Positions 1-9,611 of a stretch of 9,611 nt of DNA are shown piece by piece. The notes beneath the pieces are model-generated. The model did not search any database and was not told the origin of the DNA. It was given only the letters and a program-made list of their open reading frames with translations. The translations under genes were made by a program, and so were the position numbers. The stretch comes from a virus (Duplodnaviria; Heunggongvirae; Uroviricota; Caudoviricetes), in IMG/VR virus record IMGVR_UViG_2693429529_000026. One strand, 5' to 3'. Within the stretch, counting starts at the first letter, position 1. Every line of letters starts with the position of its first letter.

Positions 1-483
1 ATGACGAAGAAAAAAGCACATAAACCTGGTTCAGCGACCATCGCGCTTAACAAGCGCGCCCGTCACGAATACTTTATCGAAGAAGAGTTCGAAGCGGGAC
101 TTGCCCTGCAAGGCTGGGAGGTTAAATCCCTGCGCGCAGGAAAAGCCAATATCAGCGACAGCTACGTCCTTCTGCGTGACGGAGAGGCATTTCTGTTTGG
201 CGCTAACATCACGCCAATGGCCGTGGCCTCCACGCATGTGGTGTGCGATCCTACCCGTACCCGCAAGTTACTTCTCAACCAGCGCGAACTGGACTCATTG
301 TACGGTCGCGTCAATCGAGAAGGCTATACCGTAGTGGCGCTCTCCCTGTACTGGAAAAATGCCTGGTGCAAAGTGAAAATCGGCGTCGCCAAAGGTAAAA
401 AACAGCACGATAAACGTTCAGATATCAAAGAACGCGAATGGCAGGTGGATAAAGCACGTATCATGAAAAACGCCCACCGTTAA
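1..483 (+). CDS. smpB: SsrA-binding protein SmpB (160 aa)
   Basis: Full-length ORF whose translation I recognise as enterobacterial SmpB; the tmRNA gene follows immediately, which is the conserved smpB-ssrA arrangement. Confidence 0.95.
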
Positions 484-653
484 ACCTGCACTCCAATTAT
501 TGACCAGTTCCTCACCGCGCCTCCCTCTCCGGCGGCGCGAATCAACATCTTATTGGCTATCACATCCGACACAAATGTTGCCATCCCATTGCTTAATCGA
601 ATAAAAATCAGGCTACATGGGTGCTAAATCTTTAACGATAACGCCATTGAGGC

Positions 654-683
654 TGGTCATGGCGCTCATAAATCTGGTATACT
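654..683 (+). promoter_or_regulatory. Candidate ssrA promoter (-35 TGGTCA approx 654-659, -10 TATACT 678-683)
   Basis: Hexamers with 18 bp spacing about 15 nt upstream of the mature tmRNA 5' end; consistent with a short RNase P-processed leader. Read by eye only. Confidence 0.3.
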
Positions 684-697
684 TACCTTTACACATT

Positions 698-1060
698 GGG
701 GCTGATTCTGGATTCGACGGGATTTGCGAAACCCAAGGTGCATGCCGAGGGGCGGTTGGCCTCGTAAAAAGCCGCAAAAAATAGTCGCAAACGACGAAAA
801 CTACGCTTTAGCAGCTTAATAACCTGCTTAGAGCCCTCTCTCCCTAGCCTCCGCTCTTAGGACGGGGATCAAGAGAGGTCAAACCCAAAAGAGATCGCGT
901 GGAAGCCCTGCCTGGGGTTGAAGCGTTAAAACTTAATCAGGCTAGTTTGTTAGTGGCGTGTCCGTCCGCAGCTGGCAAGCGAATGTAAAGACTGACTAAG
1001 CATGTAGTACCGAGGATGTAGGAATTTCGGACGCGGGTTCAACTCCCGCCAGCTCCACCA
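698..1060 (+). ncRNA. ssrA: tmRNA (transfer-messenger RNA, 363 nt)
   Basis: Begins GGGGCTGATTCTGGATTCGACGGG and ends GGTTCAACTCCCGCCAGCTCCACCA (tRNA-like acceptor/T-arm with CCA); internal tag frame encodes ANDENYALAA. Confidence 0.95.
787..819 (+). other. tmRNA tag-peptide reading frame (resume codon GCA; ANDENYALAA; TAA followed by a second TAA at 820-822)
   Basis: GCA AAC GAC GAA AAC TAC GCT TTA GCA GCT TAA read directly inside ssrA. Confidence 0.85.
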
Positions 1061-1190
1061 ATCATGATTGGACGGTGTAAGGACAACACCAACAAAAACA
1101 GGAAGTTAGCAGTCTCAGCAGGACACCGACCAGACGGTGAGGAGACAAAAAAGGATACGCAAAGGAGCCGCGGCTCTCAAGTGTGAAAGA

Positions 1191-1216
1191 AGCCCGCAAA
1201 TTGCGGGCTTTTTTAT
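1191..1216 (+). terminator. Intrinsic terminator downstream of ssrA
   Basis: Perfect 7 bp GC-rich stem AGCCCGC / GCGGGCT with 5 nt loop, followed by TTTTTT. Confidence 0.6.
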
Positions 1217-1269
1217 TGATCAGTCAACAATAAACAGTAACCGAATGAGAATTTAATAAGGATATTCAT

Positions 1270-2301
1270 ATGGAAGCTACTGTGGATTCGATTGATTTTC
1301 TGATCCGTAGTGAAGATGATTTTCTAAACTTTCTGGAAGAAATGAAAGCCCGAGAGGGGCTTGATTCTAAAGAGTTTATTTTCCCTAACGTAAAGTTTGC
1401 AGGCTGGCCATCCTTAGACATAAATGTAAAAGGAGAGCGGTATCATTCATCAATTACATCAGCAATGTTGTTTGGTATGTCAATGCTCAACGAGGAGATA
1501 CAGCGGGCGTTTGCAACCATACGATACGGATCGCAGAATCTTCAACGCTTGACTAATGAAGACAAGCAACGACTTGATATAAATTTTAAAATTAGCGAAG
1601 GTTCTAGTGATGCGGAAGGCACCACTGACAAGATCATCAACGCAGTAACTGATTTTTTGCGAGATACTATGTCTGGACTGAACGGCTGGCAGAAAATGCT
1701 TGTTATAATCACAATGGTTGGCGCGGCCAGCACATGTGGTTATCACTACATTTCAGAAAATGCCGTAACAGAAAGACATGCAACTGATCGGCAGGTTGAA
1801 ATTGCAAAAACCACATCCGATGGCATAAACAAAGCCATAGAAGCAACATTAGATTATAAAATCTATGGGAAATCAGCGATTAGCGATAAAGTTACTAGTC
1901 ACGGACAAGCAGGTAAAAGTGCTTTAGTGAAGCAATTAGCTGCTGATCCTACTGTCGAAACCGTGACTTTAGGAAATGAGAAACTAACACGACAAGACCT
2001 AAATACCTACAACAGCCGACAATCTGTAGATAGAGAACGTAAAGAACGAACTGATATATTTTCCATCAAAGGTGTAACCAGAACAGGGCCAACAAATCAG
2101 GATATTAATATTAACGTTGTTAGGGTCTCTAATGACGAATGCTTCACAATCAAAGCTTCAGCTGATGTTATCACCCAAGATGAGTTGACAGCTATTGTTG
2201 ACGCTTTGTCAAACAACTCTCATATTAAAATCAGTTACTTAGAGGTAATTGAAAAGGGTGCTGTTTCTATAGGTCAGTTCAACACTATTGTTTCAGAATA
2301 A
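1270..2301 (+). CDS. Hypothetical protein, 343 aa, one central hydrophobic segment; no family recognised
   Basis: Long ORF with AAGGA Shine-Dalgarno 7 nt upstream of ATG; AT-rich codon usage unlike smpB; hydrophobic stretch WQKMLVIITMVGAASTCGYHYI. Confidence 0.75.
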   Translation: MEATVDSIDFLIRSEDDFLNFLEEMKAREGLDSKEFIFPNVKFAGWPSLDINVKGERYHSSITSAMLFGMSMLNEEIQRAFATIRYGSQNLQRLTNEDKQRLDINFKISEGSSDAEGTTDKIINAVTDFLRDTMSGLNGWQKMLVIITMVGAASTCGYHYISENAVTERHATDRQVEIAKTTSDGINKAIEATLDYKIYGKSAISDKVTSHGQAGKSALVKQLAADPTVETVTLGNEKLTRQDLNTYNSRQSVDRERKERTDIFSIKGVTRTGPTNQDININVVRVSNDECFTIKASADVITQDELTAIVDALSNNSHIKISYLEVIEKGAVSIGQFNTIVSE

Positions 2302-2352
2302 TCACTTAACCCCATTTATGTCGGTTGAGGTTATAAGTCACGGAGACCAGAT

Positions 2353-2697
2353 ATGTCCTTAAAGTATGCACATGAAAAATTTCATACTGCAGTACTTACT
2401 CTTGCGGGCCATGGAAGTATTCAAGAACGCTTGATTAATTCGTATGTTTTTAGCCTTGGGCATCTTAAAACAGCCGATGATATTCCAAATGCCTTACAAA
2501 GCAGGTTCGATGAATTATGTAAGGAACTGACTAAGTTTGATGCCACTGGCGATGAGGGGCGAGTTCAAGCAACAGTATCAAAACTTAACGATTTCGAGAT
2601 CAATAAACTGATCGAAGATATTGTCAGTCTTAACGATGATATTTGCATGAAATTGGCTCTGACGGATGAGACTTACCAAGACATACACCAAAGTTAA
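2353..2697 (+). CDS. Hypothetical small acidic protein, 114 aa; no family recognised
   Basis: ORF 51 bp downstream of the previous gene, GGAGA Shine-Dalgarno; same AT-rich composition; followed by a hairpin. Confidence 0.7.
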   Translation: MSLKYAHEKFHTAVLTLAGHGSIQERLINSYVFSLGHLKTADDIPNALQSRFDELCKELTKFDATGDEGRVQATVSKLNDFEINKLIEDIVSLNDDICMKLALTDETYQDIHQS

Positions 2698-2724
2698 TTG
2701 ATTAAATTCAAAAAGTTAACGTTC

Positions 2725-2752
2725 AACCAGCCAGTTTTTGGCTGGTTTATTG
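2725..2752 (+). terminator. Hairpin between convergent genes, likely terminator of the two-gene cassette
   Basis: AACCAGCC(A) / (T)GGCTGGTT stem with T-rich loop, followed by a T-rich but interrupted tail. Confidence 0.4.
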
Positions 2753-2781
2753 TCTTATAATATTCTTGCTCGAATGATGCA

Positions 2782-2994
2782 CTATTTATGATGTAATCCG
2801 GACATCAGTTCATGGACAAGATTATCTCTTTCATTGTGTTGCAACCGTAAATGCATAGCAAAAAGGTGAGCACTATCCTCATTCCTCTTCAAGCCATGCT
2901 GTTCAAGATACCCGAAAAAACGGCTTCTCTTATCCGCTATTTCCTGAGTCTGACGTGCAACATTTACCAAATTTTCTAGCGTTTTTCTTGGCAT
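2782..2994 (-). CDS. Hypothetical protein, 70 aa
   Basis: ORF with strong AGGAGG Shine-Dalgarno about 8 nt upstream of ATG; lies immediately downstream of pin on the same strand. Confidence 0.55.
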   Translation of the reverse strand: MPRKTLENLVNVARQTQEIADKRSRFFGYLEQHGLKRNEDSAHLFAMHLRLQHNERDNLVHELMSGLHHK

Positions 2995-3192
2995 ACTATT
3001 TCCTCCTGAAATTGTTGTAATTCACTAGGATATTCATTTTAATTTGTATCATTTAGTACCAAAACCGCTATCAATTAACAAAGCCATCGTTGTGGTTTAC
3101 CTTGCAGCCGTTTTTTGTCATTGACTCTATGTGAAAATAATGAATCATCATGAGATTGGCTCACACGTTCTTGAATTCGACGAGCTGTGTCT

Positions 3193-3747
3193 TTATTTAT
3201 CTCCTGCCGGAAACCTCTGATACAAAGTCGATACGCCAACATCATAGATAATCGCAACTTTCTGGCGCGGAACTCCTGATGCAATTAATCGTCCGGCTTG
3301 TGCCCATTGTTCTGGTGTAAGTTTGGGACGACGTCCACCAATTCGTCCCTGTGCGCGAGCAGCTTCCAGTCCAGCTTTTGTTCGTTCAACAATCAGTTCT
3401 CGTTCCATTTCAGCCAGGGCCCCCATCACATGAAAGAAAAAGCGCCCCATTGGGGTACTGGTATCAATTGAATCCGTCAGACTACGAAAGTTGATGCCTC
3501 GTTCGCGCAACTCCTCCACCAGCACGACAAGATGCCGCATACTGCGCCCCAGTCGGTCCAGTTTCCAGACCACCAGCGTATCGCCTGCCGATAATGTCCT
3601 GAGCAGTTTTTTCAGTCCCGGCCTTTCGGACTTTGTACCGCTTATCTTGTCTTCAAAAATCAGCTCGCATCCTGCACAGTTCAGCGCATTACGTTGTAGA
3701 TCTGTGTTCTGGTCATTTGTTGACACACGTACATAGCCAATAAGCNN
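3193..3747 (-). CDS. pin: Serine recombinase, DNA invertase Pin/Gin/Hin family (about 184 aa); start codon partly masked by the N-run
   Basis: N-terminus (M)LIGYVRVSTNDQNTDLQRNAL carries the catalytic serine motif of resolvase/invertases; C-terminal helix-turn-helix region; length and sequence resemble e14 PinE. The ORF track starts at the internal GTG at 3726; the ATG inferred from the other two copies falls at 3745-3747. Confidence 0.9.
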   Translation of the reverse strand, partial: XLIGYVRVSTNDQNTDLQRNALNCAGCELIFEDKISGTKSERPGLKKLLRTLSAGDTLVVWKLDRLGRSMRHLVVLVEELRERGINFRSLTDSIDTSTPMGRFFFHVMGALAEMERELIVERTKAGLEAARAQGRIGGRRPKLTPEQWAQAGRLIASGVPRQKVAIIYDVGVSTLYQRFPAGDK

Positions 3748-3756
3748 NNNNNNNNN
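3746..3756. other. Run of 11 N (assembly gap or masked junction) between pin start and the IS end
   Basis: Literal n characters in the sequence. Confidence 1.
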
Positions 3757-3765
3757 TTGTAGTGG

Positions 3766-5575
<1,810 letters not shown>

Positions 5576-5578
5576 TCC

Positions 5579-6340
5579 ATGCATCGTATAGACACGAAAA
5601 CCGCGCAGAAGGATAAGTTCGGCGCGGGTAAGAACGGTTTTACCCGTGGTAACCCCCAGACCGGCACACCTGCCACCGATCTGGATGATGACTACTTTGA
5701 CATGTTGCAGGAAGAACTCTGCAGCGTGGTGGAGGCATCCGGTGCCAGCCTGGAGAAGGGGCGGCATGACCAGCTGCTTACCGCGCTTCGTGCGCTGCTG
5801 TTAAGCCGCAAGAATCCGTTTGGCGATATCAAATCTGATGGCACGGTGAAAACGGCTCTCGAAAACCTTGGTTTGGGAGAAGGTTCGGCATTACCCGTTG
5901 GTGTGCCTGTTCCGTGGCCTTCCGCCACTCCGCCAACGGGGTGGCTAAAATGTAACGGAGCAGTATTTTCTTCTGAAAAGTACCCAAATCTGGCAAAGGC
6001 TTACCCAACATTAAAATTACCAGATTTACGCGGTGAATTTATTCGTGGCTGGGATGATGGGCGCGGGATTGACTCTGGTCGTAACTTATTATCTGCACAG
6101 AATGATGCAATTCAGAATATTGTTGGTTCTTTTGGGCGTACCCAGCTTTTTAGAGACGTACTTAGTTCAGGGCCATTTAGTCAACATGGGCAAGTATTAT
6201 CTACAGGTCTAAAGGAAGCCGCAATTATTGAGGGTTATGGCGCTTATAACTGGACATTCGACGCATCTCGCTCAGTTCGCACAGCATCTGAAACCCGCTC
6301 CCGTAACATCGCCTTTAATTATATTGTGAGGGCTGCATGA
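5579..6340 (+). CDS. stf: Side tail fibre protein (constant N-terminal region fused to variable C-terminal cassette 1), 253 aa
   Basis: N-terminus [29 protein letters not shown]...[11 protein letters not shown] is the conserved phage Stf head; GGAG Shine-Dalgarno; the crossover site lies inside the gene at the constant/variable boundary. Confidence 0.8.
5856..5881. other. Invertase crossover site (hix/gix-like), left junction: CTCTCGAAAACC-TT-GGTTTGGGAGAA
   Basis: Resembles hix/gix as I recall them (TTCTTGAAAACC-AA-GGTTTTTGATAA); sits exactly where the duplicated cassette sequence begins (5868). Confidence 0.6.
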
Positions 6341-6891
6341 TAAGTAAAGCTGTATTAAATAATGAACTCATCGCCACAAAGGCCGGAGACATTACCGTTT
6401 ATAATTATGATGGTGAAACACGGGAATATATTTCCACATCAACTGAATATCTTGCTGTGGGTGTTGGTATCCCGGCATGTTCCTGTTTAGATGCTCCTGG
6501 CTCATATAAAGCTGGTTATGCAATTTGCCGTTCTGCAGATTTTAACTCATGGGAATATGTGCCAGACCATCGCGGTGAAATCGTCTATAGCACCGAAACA
6601 GGAGAATCAAAAGAAATCACACTTCCGGGTGATTACCCTGAAAATACAACCACTATCGCCCCGTTAACGTCATACGATAAATGGGATGGTGAGAAATGGG
6701 TGACCGATACTGAGGCACAGCATAACGCCGCAGTAGACGCGGCAGAAGTACGGCGCCAGTCACTGATTGATGCTGCTATGGCTTCCATTAGTCTGATTCA
6801 GCTGAAATTGCAGGCCGGGCGGAAGCTGACGCAGGCAGAAACAACCCGGCTTAACGCTGTGCTGGATTACATTGACGCGGTGACTGCAACA
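5868..6891 (+). repeat. Direct repeat, copy A of about 1024 bp (cassette 1 plus tfa); partner at 7275-8298
   Basis: ORF translations identical between copies; constant offset of 1407 bp from ORF coordinates. Confidence 0.85.
6337..6891 (+). CDS. tfa: Tail fibre assembly protein Tfa, copy A, 3' end replaced at the N junction (chimeric ORF continues to 7197)
   Basis: Identical to the full-length copy 7744-8349 for the first 185 codons, then a single N and antisense pin sequence. Confidence 0.6.
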
Positions 6892-6892
6892 N
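6892..6892. other. Single N at a chimeric junction (tfa codon 185 joined to the interior of pin, antisense)
   Basis: Position deduced from ORF-track coordinates; sequence on either side matches different genes. Confidence 0.8.
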
Positions 6893-6893
6893 G

Positions 6894-7208
6894 AAAGAAA
6901 AAGCGCCCCATTGGGGTACTGGTATCAATTGAATCCGTCAGACTACGAAAGTTGATGCCTCGTTCGCGCAACTCCTCCACCAGCACGACAAGATGCCGCA
7001 TACTGCGCCCCAGTCGGTCCAGTTTCCAGACCACCAGCGTATCGCCTGCCGATAATGTCCTGAGCAGTTTTTTCAGTCCCGGCCTTTCGGACTTTGTACC
7101 GCTTATCTTGTCTTCAAAAATCAGCTCGCATCCTGCACAGTTCAGCGCATTACGTTGTAGATCTGTGTTCTGGTCATTTGTTGACACACGTACATAGCCA
7201 ATAAGCAT
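6894..7208 (-). pseudogene. pin: Partial pin invertase (codons 1-105 only), identical to the 5' part of pin at 3193-3747
   Basis: MLIGYVRVSTNDQ...MGRFFF then the junction; same nucleotide sequence as copy 1 at offset 3461. Confidence 0.8.
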
Positions 7209-7262
7209 GGTAGATCTCCCTGACAAAAGCAGGAATGATGCCATTTGCTCGTTATTTCTGCA

Positions 7263-7288
7263 TTTTCATAAACGTTGGTTTGGGAGAA
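7263..7288. other. Invertase crossover site, pin-proximal type: TTTTCATAAACG-TT-GGTTTGGGAGAA
   Basis: Same inner half-site as 5856-5881, different outer half-site. Confidence 0.55.
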
Positions 7289-7747
7289 GGTTCGGCATTA
7301 CCCGTTGGTGTGCCTGTTCCGTGGCCTTCCGCCACTCCGCCAACGGGGTGGCTAAAATGTAACGGAGCAGTATTTTCTTCTGAAAAGTACCCAAATCTGG
7401 CAAAGGCTTACCCAACATTAAAATTACCAGATTTACGCGGTGAATTTATTCGTGGCTGGGATGATGGGCGCGGGATTGACTCTGGTCGTAACTTATTATC
7501 TGCACAGAATGATGCAATTCAGAATATTGTTGGTTCTTTTGGGCGTACCCAGCTTTTTAGAGACGTACTTAGTTCAGGGCCATTTAGTCAACATGGGCAA
7601 GTATTATCTACAGGTCTAAAGGAAGCCGCAATTATTGAGGGTTATGGCGCTTATAACTGGACATTCGACGCATCTCGCTCAGTTCGCACAGCATCTGAAA
7701 CCCGCTCCCGTAACATCGCCTTTAATTATATTGTGAGGGCTGCATGA
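7277..7747 (+). CDS. Tail fibre variable C-terminal cassette 1, second copy (not fused to the constant region here)
   Basis: Identical to 5870-6340; the upstream in-frame ATG at 7235 lies in the pin-proximal spacer. Confidence 0.55.
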   Translation, partial: GLGEGSALPVGVPVPWPSATPPTGWLKCNGAVFSSEKYPNLAKAYPTLKLPDLRGEFIRGWDDGRGIDSGRNLLSAQNDAIQNIVGSFGRTQLFRDVLSSGPFSQHGQVLSTGLKEAAIIEGYGAYNWTFDASRSVRTASETRSRNIAFNYIVRAA

Positions 7748-8349
7748 TAAGTAAAGCTGTATTAAATAATGAACTCATCGCCACAAAGGCCGGAGACATT
7801 ACCGTTTATAATTATGATGGTGAAACACGGGAATATATTTCCACATCAACTGAATATCTTGCTGTGGGTGTTGGTATCCCGGCATGTTCCTGTTTAGATG
7901 CTCCTGGCTCATATAAAGCTGGTTATGCAATTTGCCGTTCTGCAGATTTTAACTCATGGGAATATGTGCCAGACCATCGCGGTGAAATCGTCTATAGCAC
8001 CGAAACAGGAGAATCAAAAGAAATCACACTTCCGGGTGATTACCCTGAAAATACAACCACTATCGCCCCGTTAACGTCATACGATAAATGGGATGGTGAG
8101 AAATGGGTGACCGATACTGAGGCACAGCATAACGCCGCAGTAGACGCGGCAGAAGTACGGCGCCAGTCACTGATTGATGCTGCTATGGCTTCCATTAGTC
8201 TGATTCAGCTGAAATTGCAGGCCGGGCGGAAGCTGACGCAGGCAGAAACAACCCGGCTTAACGCTGTGCTGGATTACATTGACGCGGTGACTGCAACAGA
8301 TACCAGCACCGCGCCGGATGTCATCTGGCCTGAACTACCGGAGGCGTAG
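7744..8349 (+). CDS. tfa: Tail fibre assembly protein Tfa, full length (201 aa)
   Basis: C-terminus ...[26 protein letters not shown] is the conserved Tfa tail; ATG overlaps the stf stop (ATGA). Confidence 0.85.
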   Translation: MISKAVLNNELIATKAGDITVYNYDGETREYISTSTEYLAVGVGIPACSCLDAPGSYKAGYAICRSADFNSWEYVPDHRGEIVYSTETGESKEITLPGDYPENTTTIAPLTSYDKWDGEKWVTDTEAQHNAAVDAAEVRRQSLIDAAMASISLIQLKLQAGRKLTQAETTRLNAVLDYIDAVTATDTSTAPDVIWPELPEA

Positions 8350-8764
8350 GCCATTCAATATCTGGAGCACTGGAGGTATCAACCAGTTCCAGTGCGTCCA
8401 GATAATCCAGCCATAAATTATATTGTTCCAGCTCGTAACCTTTCAGACGACCAATAGCAGCTTTGCCAGGCCACTGATGGGTATTGATGTAGGTATTGAC
8501 TTCTGAAACCAAAGATATCTTTTTCATTTCAGCCGCCAGCATCTCATCCTCTTTTGAAGGCGGCGGGGAATTAATCCATATTGGCCGTCCTGAACTGTCA
8601 GCGCCAATTTCTTTCCCTTCTGGATGCAGCCCAAGAAATTGCTCATATGTTTCTCTGGTAATTTCAATAACATCATCAGGAAGCGTTCCCGCATCCTCAT
8701 ATTCTGGAAACAATTCTTGCAGATAAAAACTTTTACTTGCGGGTGAAAAGAATACTGAGTTCAT
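8321..8764 (-). CDS. tfa: Alternative tail fibre assembly protein Tfa' (147 aa), convergent and overlapping tfa
   Basis: C-terminus ...LWLDYLDALELVDTSSAPDIEWPTPP matches the Tfa family tail; arrangement as in Mu U/U' and e14 tfaP/tfaE. Confidence 0.85.
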   Translation of the reverse strand: MNSVFFSPASKSFYLQELFPEYEDAGTLPDDVIEITRETYEQFLGLHPEGKEIGADSSGRPIWINSPPPSKEDEMLAAEMKKISLVSEVNTYINTHQWPGKAAIGRLKGYELEQYNLWLDYLDALELVDTSSAPDIEWPTPPVVQAR

Positions 8765-8766
8765 TC

Positions 8767-9219
8767 TTACCGTCCAATGATTAACGCTGAGACGCTGGTA
8801 TCTGAAGGAAAGGCTGCATTCAGTGGTTTGTCGACTTTGAACACAATCGTATTATTCCCCCTGACAGCGGCAAAAGAACAAACCGCCGTCGCGTATGAAC
8901 CTGTAATATTACTGGATACACCACCATAAGCTGTTGTTGATACCAGAGGGATAACGCCCAGCACCTTATTAGGAAATACAAAGGGCAATGTGGCTGTGGC
9001 AATATAAGACTTATTAGAACCTGTAATGGCATAAGCATTATCAGTCATTCCATTCATCGCCACTGGACCGCTTATACTTACAGTAACCATCTGAATGATT
9101 AGCCCGTCAGGTTGACGAATCACAAAATTTCCATTGCCACCAGTAACCGTCCAGAAAGACATATCAGGGATTTGGTTTTCCCCGTTGCCCACATTTCGTT
9201 TTGCCGCTTCTCCCAAACC
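8767..9219 (-). CDS. Alternative tail fibre variable C-terminal cassette 2, expressed only after inversion fuses it to the constant region
   Basis: In frame across the crossover site (...GLGE|AAKRNVGNGENQIP...); different sequence from cassette 1; sits upstream of tfa' on the same strand. Confidence 0.7.
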   Translation of the reverse strand, partial: GLGEAAKRNVGNGENQIPDMSFWTVTGGNGNFVIRQPDGLIIQMVTVSISGPVAMNGMTDNAYAITGSNKSYIATATLPFVFPNKVLGVIPLVSTTAYGGVSSNITGSYATAVCSFAAVRGNNTIVFKVDKPLNAAFPSDTSVSALIIGR

Positions 9220-9233
9220 AACGTTTATGAAAA
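9208..9233. other. Invertase crossover site, right junction (reverse complement of the 7263-7288 site)
   Basis: Mirror image of the site at 7263-7288. Confidence 0.55.
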
Positions 9234-9287
9234 TGCAGAAATAACGAGCAAATGGCATCATTCCTGCTTTTGTCAGGGAGATCTACC

Positions 9288-9611
9288 ATGCTTATTGGCT
9301 ATGTACGTGTGTCAACAAATGACCAGAACACAGATCTACAACGTAATGCGCTGAACTGTGCAGGATGCGAGCTGATTTTTGAAGACAAGATAAGCGGTAC
9401 AAAGTCCGAAAGGCCGGGACTGAAAAAACTGCTCAGGACATTATCGGCAGGCGATACGCTGGTGGTCTGGAAACTGGACCGACTGGGGCGCAGTATGCGG
9501 CATCTTGTCGTGCTGGTGGAGGAGTTGCGCGAACGAGGCATCAACTTTCGTAGTCTGACGGATTCAATTGATACCAGTACCCCAATGGGGCGCTTTTTCT
9601 TTCATGTGATG
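9288..9611 (+). CDS. pin: Pin-family DNA invertase, 5' portion (108 codons), runs off the window end
   Basis: ATG CTT ATT GGC TAT GTA CGT GTG TCA... = MLIGYVRVSTNDQ...; identical to the other pin copies. Confidence 0.9.
   Translation, partial: MLIGYVRVSTNDQNTDLQRNALNCAGCELIFEDKISGTKSERPGLKKLLRTLSAGDTLVVWKLDRLGRSMRHLVVLVEELRERGINFRSLTDSIDTSTPMGRFFFHVM

Follow-up and report, generated by a model that had tools for sequence, protein, structure and literature searches.

Introduction

The inversion systems closest to the one described here are the P region of the e14 prophage of Escherichia coli K-12, the G segment of phage Mu and the C segment of phage P1, which are switched by serine invertases of the Hin/Gin/Cin/Pin family, enzymes able to complement each other. 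Tail-fiber genes may also be part of multi-site shufflons with three or more crossover sites, such as the P2-like locus of enteropathogenic E. coli (EPEC) and p15B Min. The e14 segment is known to flip in clonal K-12 cultures (PMC4272514), and both PinE and PinQ are able to invert it (PMC12529663). In this work, we analyze a 9,611-nucleotide stretch of DNA from a virus of the Caudoviricetes (IMG/VR record IMGVR_UViG_2693429529_000026; hereafter the window), in which a first-pass annotation had recognized a Pin-driven tail-fiber switch with two alternative C-terminal cassettes. We estimate a probability of about 90% that the locus represents a P segment of the e14 type, in other words a serine-invertase switch, carried by a prophage remnant adjacent to ssrA, and that the window itself is a scaffold of three contigs in which both orientations of the switch are mixed.

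Comparison with the e14, Mu and P1 Segments

The arrangement of the locus could be read from complete genomes. A tiling of three parts of the window (3757-6891, 8299-9611 and the reverse complement of 1-3423) matched the genome of strain 602687 over 7870 bp, without gaps and with 99.975% identity, and the same tiling is found, N-free and at 100% identity, in CYDA01000039.1, a draft from the same batch. An alternative tiling matched strain PS1Thumoskin9 over 6844 bp at 99.9%. Along its 7.87 kb, the real locus is ordered as smpB, ssrA, three open reading frames (ORFs), pin, a crossover site (pix), the segment formed by cassette 2, tfa′, tfa and cassette 1, a second pix, the constant part of stf, ymfQ′ and IS3.

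Several features are shared with e14. Both 26-bp sites are identical to the e14 pair, as compared directly with the MG1655 record, and Pin has 180 of 184 residues (97.8%) in common with K-12 PinE. The gene order ymfQ-stf-tfa-tfa′-stf′-pin, which the first-pass annotation had equated with that of e14, was confirmed against complete genomes and MG1655. Moreover, ymfQ and the stf constant region show 97% DNA identity to e14, tfa shows 89% DNA identity to tfaE, cassette 1 is related to the variable part of StfE (57% amino acid identity, diverging in the middle), and a leader ORF lies beside pin in both loci. However, e14 is integrated in icd and the present element at ssrA; in MG1655, pinE is followed by mcrA and icdC, whereas here pin is followed by three unannotated ORFs and mcrA is missing. 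The pair of cassettes is not the same either, as no similarity could be detected between the StfP tip and the one encoded by cassette 2 (E 0.31), and tfa′ and TfaP share only 54% identity. The sites are 1945 bp apart, compared with about 1.8 kb in e14, and the remnant is cut by an IS3-family element. Because of its position at ssrA instead of icd, the lack of mcrA and the unrelated tip of cassette 2, the locus is e14-like, but not e14 itself.

The G segment of Mu has the same layout, with constant S, Sv-U, U′-S′v and the invertase gene downstream. YmfQ is a homologue of Mu gp48, and the sites have in common the AAACC-NN-GGTTT architecture of Mu gix and P1 cixL, both taken from the phage records. 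Gin structures (PDB 3uj3/4m6f) align with Pin over 181 residues (E 1e-93), with Ser9 of Pin over Ser/Ala9 of those chains, and the position of the predicted enhancer appears conserved. On the other hand, the Mu segment is 3 kb long, its tail fiber has about 500 aa while Stf here has only about 250 aa, its core is TC/GA rather than TT/AA, and Mu is a functional phage and not a remnant. As for P1, its invertase Cin is 83% identical to Pin at the protein level, cixL has the same half-site pattern and a TT core, and the enhancer annotated in cin aligns with a putative counterpart in pin. The P1 segment differs in lying downstream of cin, in its length of 4.2 kb and in its tail-fiber genes. Taken together, identical e14 sites, a Pin-type invertase and the same gene order bear out the Mu G/P1 C/e14 P-type architecture proposed in the first-pass annotation.

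The Window as a Chimeric Scaffold

The window is identical to positions 4423-14033 of the draft scaffold CYEK01000044.1 (GCA_001286265.2), that is, to its terminal 9.6 kb; the scaffold terminates 2 nt past the end of the window. Comparison of the window with itself revealed two tracts of Ns, one of 11 (3746-3756) and one of a single N (6892), which coincide exactly with two aberrant joins. In the same comparison, positions 7270-8298 turned out to be a direct repeat of 5863-6891, 1029 bp comprising cassette 1 and tfa, with a sole mismatch inside the crossover site, and the 5′ part of pin was found three times, at 3424-3745 (minus strand), 6889-7206 (minus) and 9290-9611 (plus). In the stretch 6893-9611, the invertible segment is flanked on both sides by the 5′ end of pin, a configuration that a two-site switch is unable to give in either orientation taken singly.

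Gap-estimating scaffolders and gap fillers usually leave behind N runs of these lengths, 1 and 11. Contig 2 begins 1 nt outside the terminal inverted repeat of the IS3-family element, and such an end of an insertion sequence (IS) is a typical contig break. Among 5,426 complete E. coli genomes, none had the start of pin joined to the end of IS3 (as at 3746-3756), none had tfa joined to the middle of a reversed pin (as at 6892), and none contained 80% or more of the window in one place, while each half of both joins was common. An exact search for an N-containing join in a collection of contigs with one genome per species also gave no matches, although Ns in a query and in a record are not necessarily treated as matching. 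The idea that the Ns hide real sequence was rejected, as the flanks of both N runs are non-adjacent in every complete genome and one of the flanks is an IS terminus.

We conclude that the window consists of three overlapping contigs joined at Ns and represents no single real molecule. The duplicated cassette 1 and tfa, the reversed pin fragment and the third site are assembly artifacts derived from the presence of both orientations in the sequenced DNA. The first-pass annotation had taken the window for a real arrangement, and the Ns, the duplication and the extra copies of pin had escaped notice; of the latter, the complete copy is located beyond the coordinates that it covered. Its figure of 1.95 kb between cores holds for the distance from 7275/6 to 9220/1 (1945 bp, the real segment); counted literally from the constant-side site to the site beside the terminal pin, as it was written, the span is 3.35 kb.

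If the window were nevertheless a true molecule, it would be a three-site, shufflon-like locus in which cassette 1 and tfa are duplicated and the copies are separated by a truncated second pin. In favor of this are the three pix-type sites, and multi-site tail-fiber shufflons do exist in P2-like prophages of EPEC (PMC4272514). We regard this possibility as extremely improbable: the extra copy ends at the single N, across which tfa runs into the middle of a reversed pin; none of the 5,426 complete genomes has this join or the one between pin and IS3; the 1029-bp duplicates differ only at the base in the site; and only a mixture of the two orientations can yield a contig that has pin at both of its ends. 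Additionally, the same-batch assembly with 100% identical sequence has a simple two-site locus. Two is also the number of sites in the true locus of the complete genomes, and since the third site is an artifact found only in the chimeric scaffold, the identification of the locus as a multi-site shufflon was rejected.

Crossover Sites, Invertase and Tail-Fiber Cassettes

The coordinates of the features are given in table 1. A 14-mer shared by the sites, TTCTCCCAAACCAA, occurs three times in the window, against 0.10 occurrences expected by chance. The sites at 5856-5881 and 9208-9233 have plus-strand cores TT and AA, respectively, which makes them inverted sites with matching 2-bp cores, each flanked by 12-bp imperfect inverted half-sites. 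The sequence at 7263-7288 is also present in the complete genome of PS1Thumoskin9 (locus extract 7776-7801) and, across the family, in 760 genomes. Here cassette 1 follows the site of the pin side, which gives the junction of the opposite orientation and no third site of one molecule. Thus, all three 26-bp sequences listed in the first-pass annotation are real, but the third of the sites it counted is an alternative junction; the comparison that it recommended with gix, cix and pix gave the identity to e14 and the shared architecture mentioned above.

The 184-aa product of pin is identical to WP_000904997 of strain 602687 and contains the Pfam domains Resolvase (E 1.5e-51) and HTH_7 (E 3.6e-13). 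With a catalytic serine near residue 9-10 and a C-terminal helix-turn-helix, it has the features of a small serine recombinase, and the gene is, to judge from its sequence, intact. The best match to Pin in the phage database (96.7%) was ON470584.1, 'Escherichia phage vB_EcoM-689R6'. We rejected this record as an independent intact phage; it is a partial genome that includes the host genes icd, mnmA, hflD and nudJ as well as mcrA, and corresponds to an e14-like prophage region with its chromosomal flanks.

The first-pass annotation had recommended looking for a recombinational enhancer inside the 5′ part of pin, and a putative homologue was found there. Nucleotides 19-90 of pin align with the Cin enhancer, annotated at nt 19-90 of cin in the P1 record (76% identity), and with gin (75%). 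In all four genes (pin, pinE, cin and gin), nt 23-37 and 71-85 fit a degenerate Fis consensus, with the two matches exactly 48 bp apart; the strict motif (GNNYA-5-TRNNC) was matched at the distal site in cin and gin only, not in pin.

The constant Stf N-terminus, the two cassettes, the two tfa genes (tfa′ being convergent) and pin are all real, as first described. Constant region and cassette 1 form an open in-frame fusion of 253 aa. The fusion of the constant region (5579-5869) with the reverse complement of 8767-9219 (cassette 2) is an open frame of 247 aa with no stop or frameshift, so that the defect which could have spoken against a functional second cassette is absent; its product is annotated as a 744-bp ORF in PS1Thumoskin9. 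The exact protein made of the constant region and cassette 2 was found on 91 contigs, and that with cassette 1 on 7. Each cassette encodes a putative receptor-binding C-terminal domain, in cassette 2 with a match just below the Pfam cut-off, and is followed by a Caudo_TAP gene, and the PHROG matches of cassettes and tfa genes are to tail-fiber and assembly families, from which a fiber function is predicted.

The 54 nt between the pin-side site and pin (7235-7288 and 9208-9261) encode an 18-codon hydrophobic leader, MMPFARYFCIFINVGLGE, with AGGA just upstream, conserved with the e14 leader MPFACYFFIFINVGLGE. This leader provides its own start codon for whichever cassette adjoins pin; its ATG and that of pin are divergent and 29 nt apart. 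All four fusions, of either constant region or leader with either cassette, are open.

Table 1. Coordinates in the window of the switch, its crossover sites, the neighboring genes and the scaffold joins
Feature	Position	Strand	Remarks
pin, complete copy, nt 3-555 of the 555-nt gene	3193..3745	-	First two letters of the start codon (AT) missing at the N gap; ssrA-linked copy, contig 1
Scaffold gap, 11 N	3746..3756	.	Joins contig 1 (smpB..pin) to contig 2 (IS3..tfa); false adjacency
IS3-family IS	3758..5015	- (orfA/orfB)	26-nt terminal inverted repeats 3758-3783 / 4990-5015; annotated in RefSeq as an IS3-family transposase with a programmed frameshift
ymfQ′, Mu gp48-like baseplate wedge gene, IS-truncated at 5′	5016..5575	+	Pfam Phage_Mu_Gp48, E 1e-26
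stf constant N-terminal part, 97 codons (...KTALENLG), up to the crossover core	5579..5869	+	One residue differs from the e14 StfP N-terminus (K vs Q, residue 91)
stf ORF, constant part and cassette 1	5579-6340	+	From the ORF list
pix, constant side, joined to cassette 1 (orientation A junction)	5856..5881	+	CTCTCGAAAACC TT GGTTTGGGAGAA; core TT 5868-5869; identical to e14 site (MG1655 extract 3779-3804)
Cassette 1 (variable Stf C-terminus, tail-collar domain), contig 2 copy	5870..6340	+	Pfam Collar, E 3e-15
tfa (predicted chaperone of cassette 1), cut by the scaffold join	6337..6891	+	Duplicate of 7744-8298
Single-N scaffold join	6892	.	Contig 2 to contig 3
pin 5′ fragment, nt 1-316	6893..7208	-	Left end of chimeric contig 3
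ORF of pin-proximal leader (MMPFARYFCIFINVGLGE) and cassette 1	7235..7747	+	510-bp 'phage tail protein' in PS1Thumoskin9; exact 169-aa protein on 5 contigs
pix, pin side, joined to cassette 1 (orientation B junction)	7263..7288	+	TTTTCATAAACG TT GGTTTGGGAGAA; core 7275-7276
tfa, full length, 201 aa	7744..8349	+	Pfam Caudo_TAP, E 1e-31; 89% DNA identity to e14 tfaE
tfa′, 147 aa, predicted chaperone of cassette 2	8321..8764	-	Pfam Caudo_TAP, E 6e-27; 54% identical to e14 TfaP
ORF of pin-proximal leader and cassette 2	8767-9261	-	From the ORF list
Cassette 2 (variable Stf C-terminus, weakly gp53-like)	8767..9219	-	Pfam Gp53-like_C 22.9 bits, below the 24.9 cut-off
pix, pin side, joined to cassette 2 (orientation A junction)	9208..9233	+	TTCTCCCAAACC AA CGTTTATGAAAA; core AA 9220-9221; identical to e14 site (MG1655 extract 5606-5631)
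pin 5′ part, nt 1-324	9288..9611	+	Scaffold terminates 2 nt further on
Putative recombinational (Fis) enhancer homologue, pin nt 19-90	9306..9377	+	Fis-consensus matches 9310-9324, 9358-9372

Some minor features of these genes were also observed. The tfa and tfa′ genes are convergent, with a 29-nt overlap at 8321-8349, and their products have in common the C-terminal motif DTS(T/S)APD(V/I)(I/E)WP, as do e14 TfaE and TfaP. In NC_020163.1 (avian pathogenic E. coli O78), at 1001970-1004278, a cassette-1-like sequence stands on both the constant and the pin sides, about 2.1 kb apart, indicating that some loci of the family have two cassette-1-type tips instead of two different ones.

Evidence for Inversion

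The IS3 truncation is common to strains 602687 and PS1Thumoskin9, and the products of pinE, tfaE, tfa′ and ymfQ have identical accession numbers in both. Nevertheless, the two strains hold the segment in opposite orientations, with the cassette flanks exchanged precisely at the sites in loci that are otherwise 99.9% identical. Opposite orientations in spite of a common IS3 truncation mean that at least one inversion took place after the decay of the prophage.

The draft assemblies point in the same direction. N-free sequence of the window contains the junctions of the constant part with cassette 1, of pin with cassette 1 and of pin with cassette 2. The identity between the sites extends over only about 14-16 bp, from which it is inferred that the junction sequences needed real reads. 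In the same-batch scaffold CXZN01000041.1, with 100% identical sequence, there are three single-N joins (8269, 10909 and 13095), three copies of pin and all four junctions, and its positions 13096-15497 form an uninterrupted piece in orientation B, running from reversed pin and cassette 1 to cassette 2 and the reversed constant part. In another draft of the batch, CYDJ01000039.1, the constant part flanks the segment on both sides. Altogether, junctions are mixed in three of the four same-batch assemblies, and one of these holds all four types. Across the family, each of the four junction types was found in 525-834 of the 5,426 complete genomes; when the ssrA-side flank was required, the junction of pin with cassette 2 was found in one complete genome and that with cassette 1 in eight.

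As judged from these assemblies, the DNA that was sequenced contained an intact switch in the course of flipping, in line with the first-pass annotation, which had considered it intact and probably active. Since the scaffold was assembled from DNA in which both orientations coexisted, the window is itself evidence of flipping.

A different account would have the switch frozen: the scaffold junctions would come from a second, near-identical P region or from cross-sample contamination, and the orientations seen in the genomes would record old events. E. coli genomes often harbor several Pin-type loci, as the junction queries matched a single genome in as many as 6-8 places, and our interpretation is drawn from assembled sequence. 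Even so, we find a frozen switch very unlikely. Over a length exceeding 1 kb, no difference separates the two copies of cassette 1 and tfa, compared with a difference of 11-17% from e14, and the junction of the constant part with cassette 1 has one place only in strain 602687. The mixture of junctions in three of four same-batch assemblies and the different orientations of two genomes with the derived IS3 truncation also speak against it, and pin, both sites and the enhancer homologue appear intact.

The way in which an active switch would work can be outlined from what is known of the invertase family rather than from this locus. Dimers of Pin would bind the two inverted 26-bp pix sites, and an invertasome would be assembled by Fis on the enhancer within the first 90 nt of pin. 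Both sites would then be cut at the 2-bp AA/TT core, and one half would turn 180 degrees before religation. The outcome can be read from the sequence itself: the constant Stf N-terminus is joined in frame either to cassette 1 followed by tfa or to cassette 2 followed by tfa′, and the cassette lying beside pin becomes a second open frame behind the 18-codon leader.

Inversion could also be carried out mainly in trans by another invertase, of the PinQ/PinR type or a Din enzyme of the P2/Mu type, instead of the adjacent pin. Cross-complementation within the family agrees with this view. In addition, when over-produced, PinQ has a stronger inverting effect on the P segment of e14 than PinE (PMC12529663). 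However, K-12 pinE and pinE pinQ mutants are locked in one orientation (PMC12529663), and the adjacent pin is seemingly intact and 97.8% identical to PinE, so that we consider a main role of a trans-acting enzyme unlikely.

Some points weigh against an active, Pin-driven e14-type switch and should be considered together. Inversion in trans, as just discussed, could account for the observations, and one of the alternative junctions might, in principle, stem from another, nearly identical copy of the locus in the same genome. Fis binding at the enhancer homologue and the expression of Pin are predicted only. A promoter and terminator scan of 4900-9611 returned fewer promoter-like sites than shuffled sequences and none upstream of stf, pin or the leader ORFs; such a scan is uninformative on expression, and either Stf form is a putative product of the IS-truncated remnant. 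Finally, the ratio of orientations in the culture and the behavior of the assembler are inferred from the assemblies.

Separately from the two-cassette switch, CYDJ01000039.1 contains at 3544-4520 a third cassette beside pin, made up of a leader and a Gp53-like_C tip of 136 aa. A Caudo_TAP gene of 142 aa belongs to this cassette and is interrupted at its 3′ end by the IS3 terminus. Either the locus is configured differently in that isolate, or a second locus was mis-scaffolded.

Significance and Present Function

The main value of the window is as an example of a draft assembly distorted by an active invertible segment. Invertible segments make short-read scaffolds chimeric, with duplicated cassettes, invertase genes on both ends and single-N joins, and a reader of the raw sequence may mistake such a scaffold for a locus with extra sites or cassettes. 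At the same time, the assembly artifact is a free read-out of a switch that was active in the sequenced culture. The switch itself is of a known, textbook kind; what differs are the chromosomal site and one tail-fiber tip, and the biological addition is small.

No virion genes are left in the remnant, so the switch no longer serves a phage. The term 'host-range switch' used in the first-pass annotation therefore describes its ancestral role, but not a present one, as tail and head genes are gone.

In e14, the chimeric protein StfE2 has been reported to block the adsorption of T2, in an anti-phage effect of the e14 inversion that involves PinQ/PinE and StfE2 (Kirigo et al. 2025, PMC12529663). 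The ORFs made up of leader and cassette (7235-7747 and 8767-9261, minus strand) have the same construction as StfE2, here for both cassettes, and in each case the switch is all that a cryptic remnant has retained. The two systems differ in that the counterpart of the StfP tip is unrelated in sequence. By analogy with e14, the host might keep the remnant for a useful switch, one of the four products being phase-variable and either masking a receptor used by phage or interfering with phage in some other way; the two leader-cassette proteins could be among the candidates. We hold this proposal to be unlikely. It would explain why two independent remnants, e14 at icd and the present one at ssrA, lost their virion genes and yet kept ymfQ′-stf-tfa-tfa′-stf′-pin apparently intact and flipping. 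Were it correct, the recombinase-activated anti-phage effect recently reported for e14 would also apply to a second prophage that had decayed independently.

The Prophage Remnant and Its Neighborhood

The element derives from a prophage with a Mu-type tail that integrated next to ssrA in E. coli and has since decayed; the tmRNA gene lies at 698-1060 of the window. At the same ssrA-adjacent place, the related strain PEC122 has a fuller Mu-like baseplate module. The degradation of the flanking prophage that had been noted on first inspection is due to the IS3-family element, which cuts ymfQ (the first ~8 codons are replaced, as compared with e14 YmfQ) and displaces the whole upstream tail module. 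In the complete genomes, a ypjA/EhaD fragment comes after this element. Inside the IS, on the minus strand, 4825-4947 matched the Rfam family isrC (RF01387).

Three unannotated ORFs are found between ssrA and pin, at 1270-2301 (plus strand, 343 aa), 2353-2697 (plus, 114 aa) and 2782-2994 (minus, 70 aa). None of them had a match in Pfam or PADLOC, and the sole PHROGs match of the 343-aa ORF was phrog_6191, of unknown function. At the prophage end, the position held by mcrA in e14, they could be cargo or defense genes.

The match of PS1Thumoskin9 to the window starts only at window position 1027. In this strain, an extra element with an integrase-like gene and a DUF4760 gene (locus extract 2332-4898) is present between ssrA and the remnant, which suggests tandem occupation of the ssrA attachment site.

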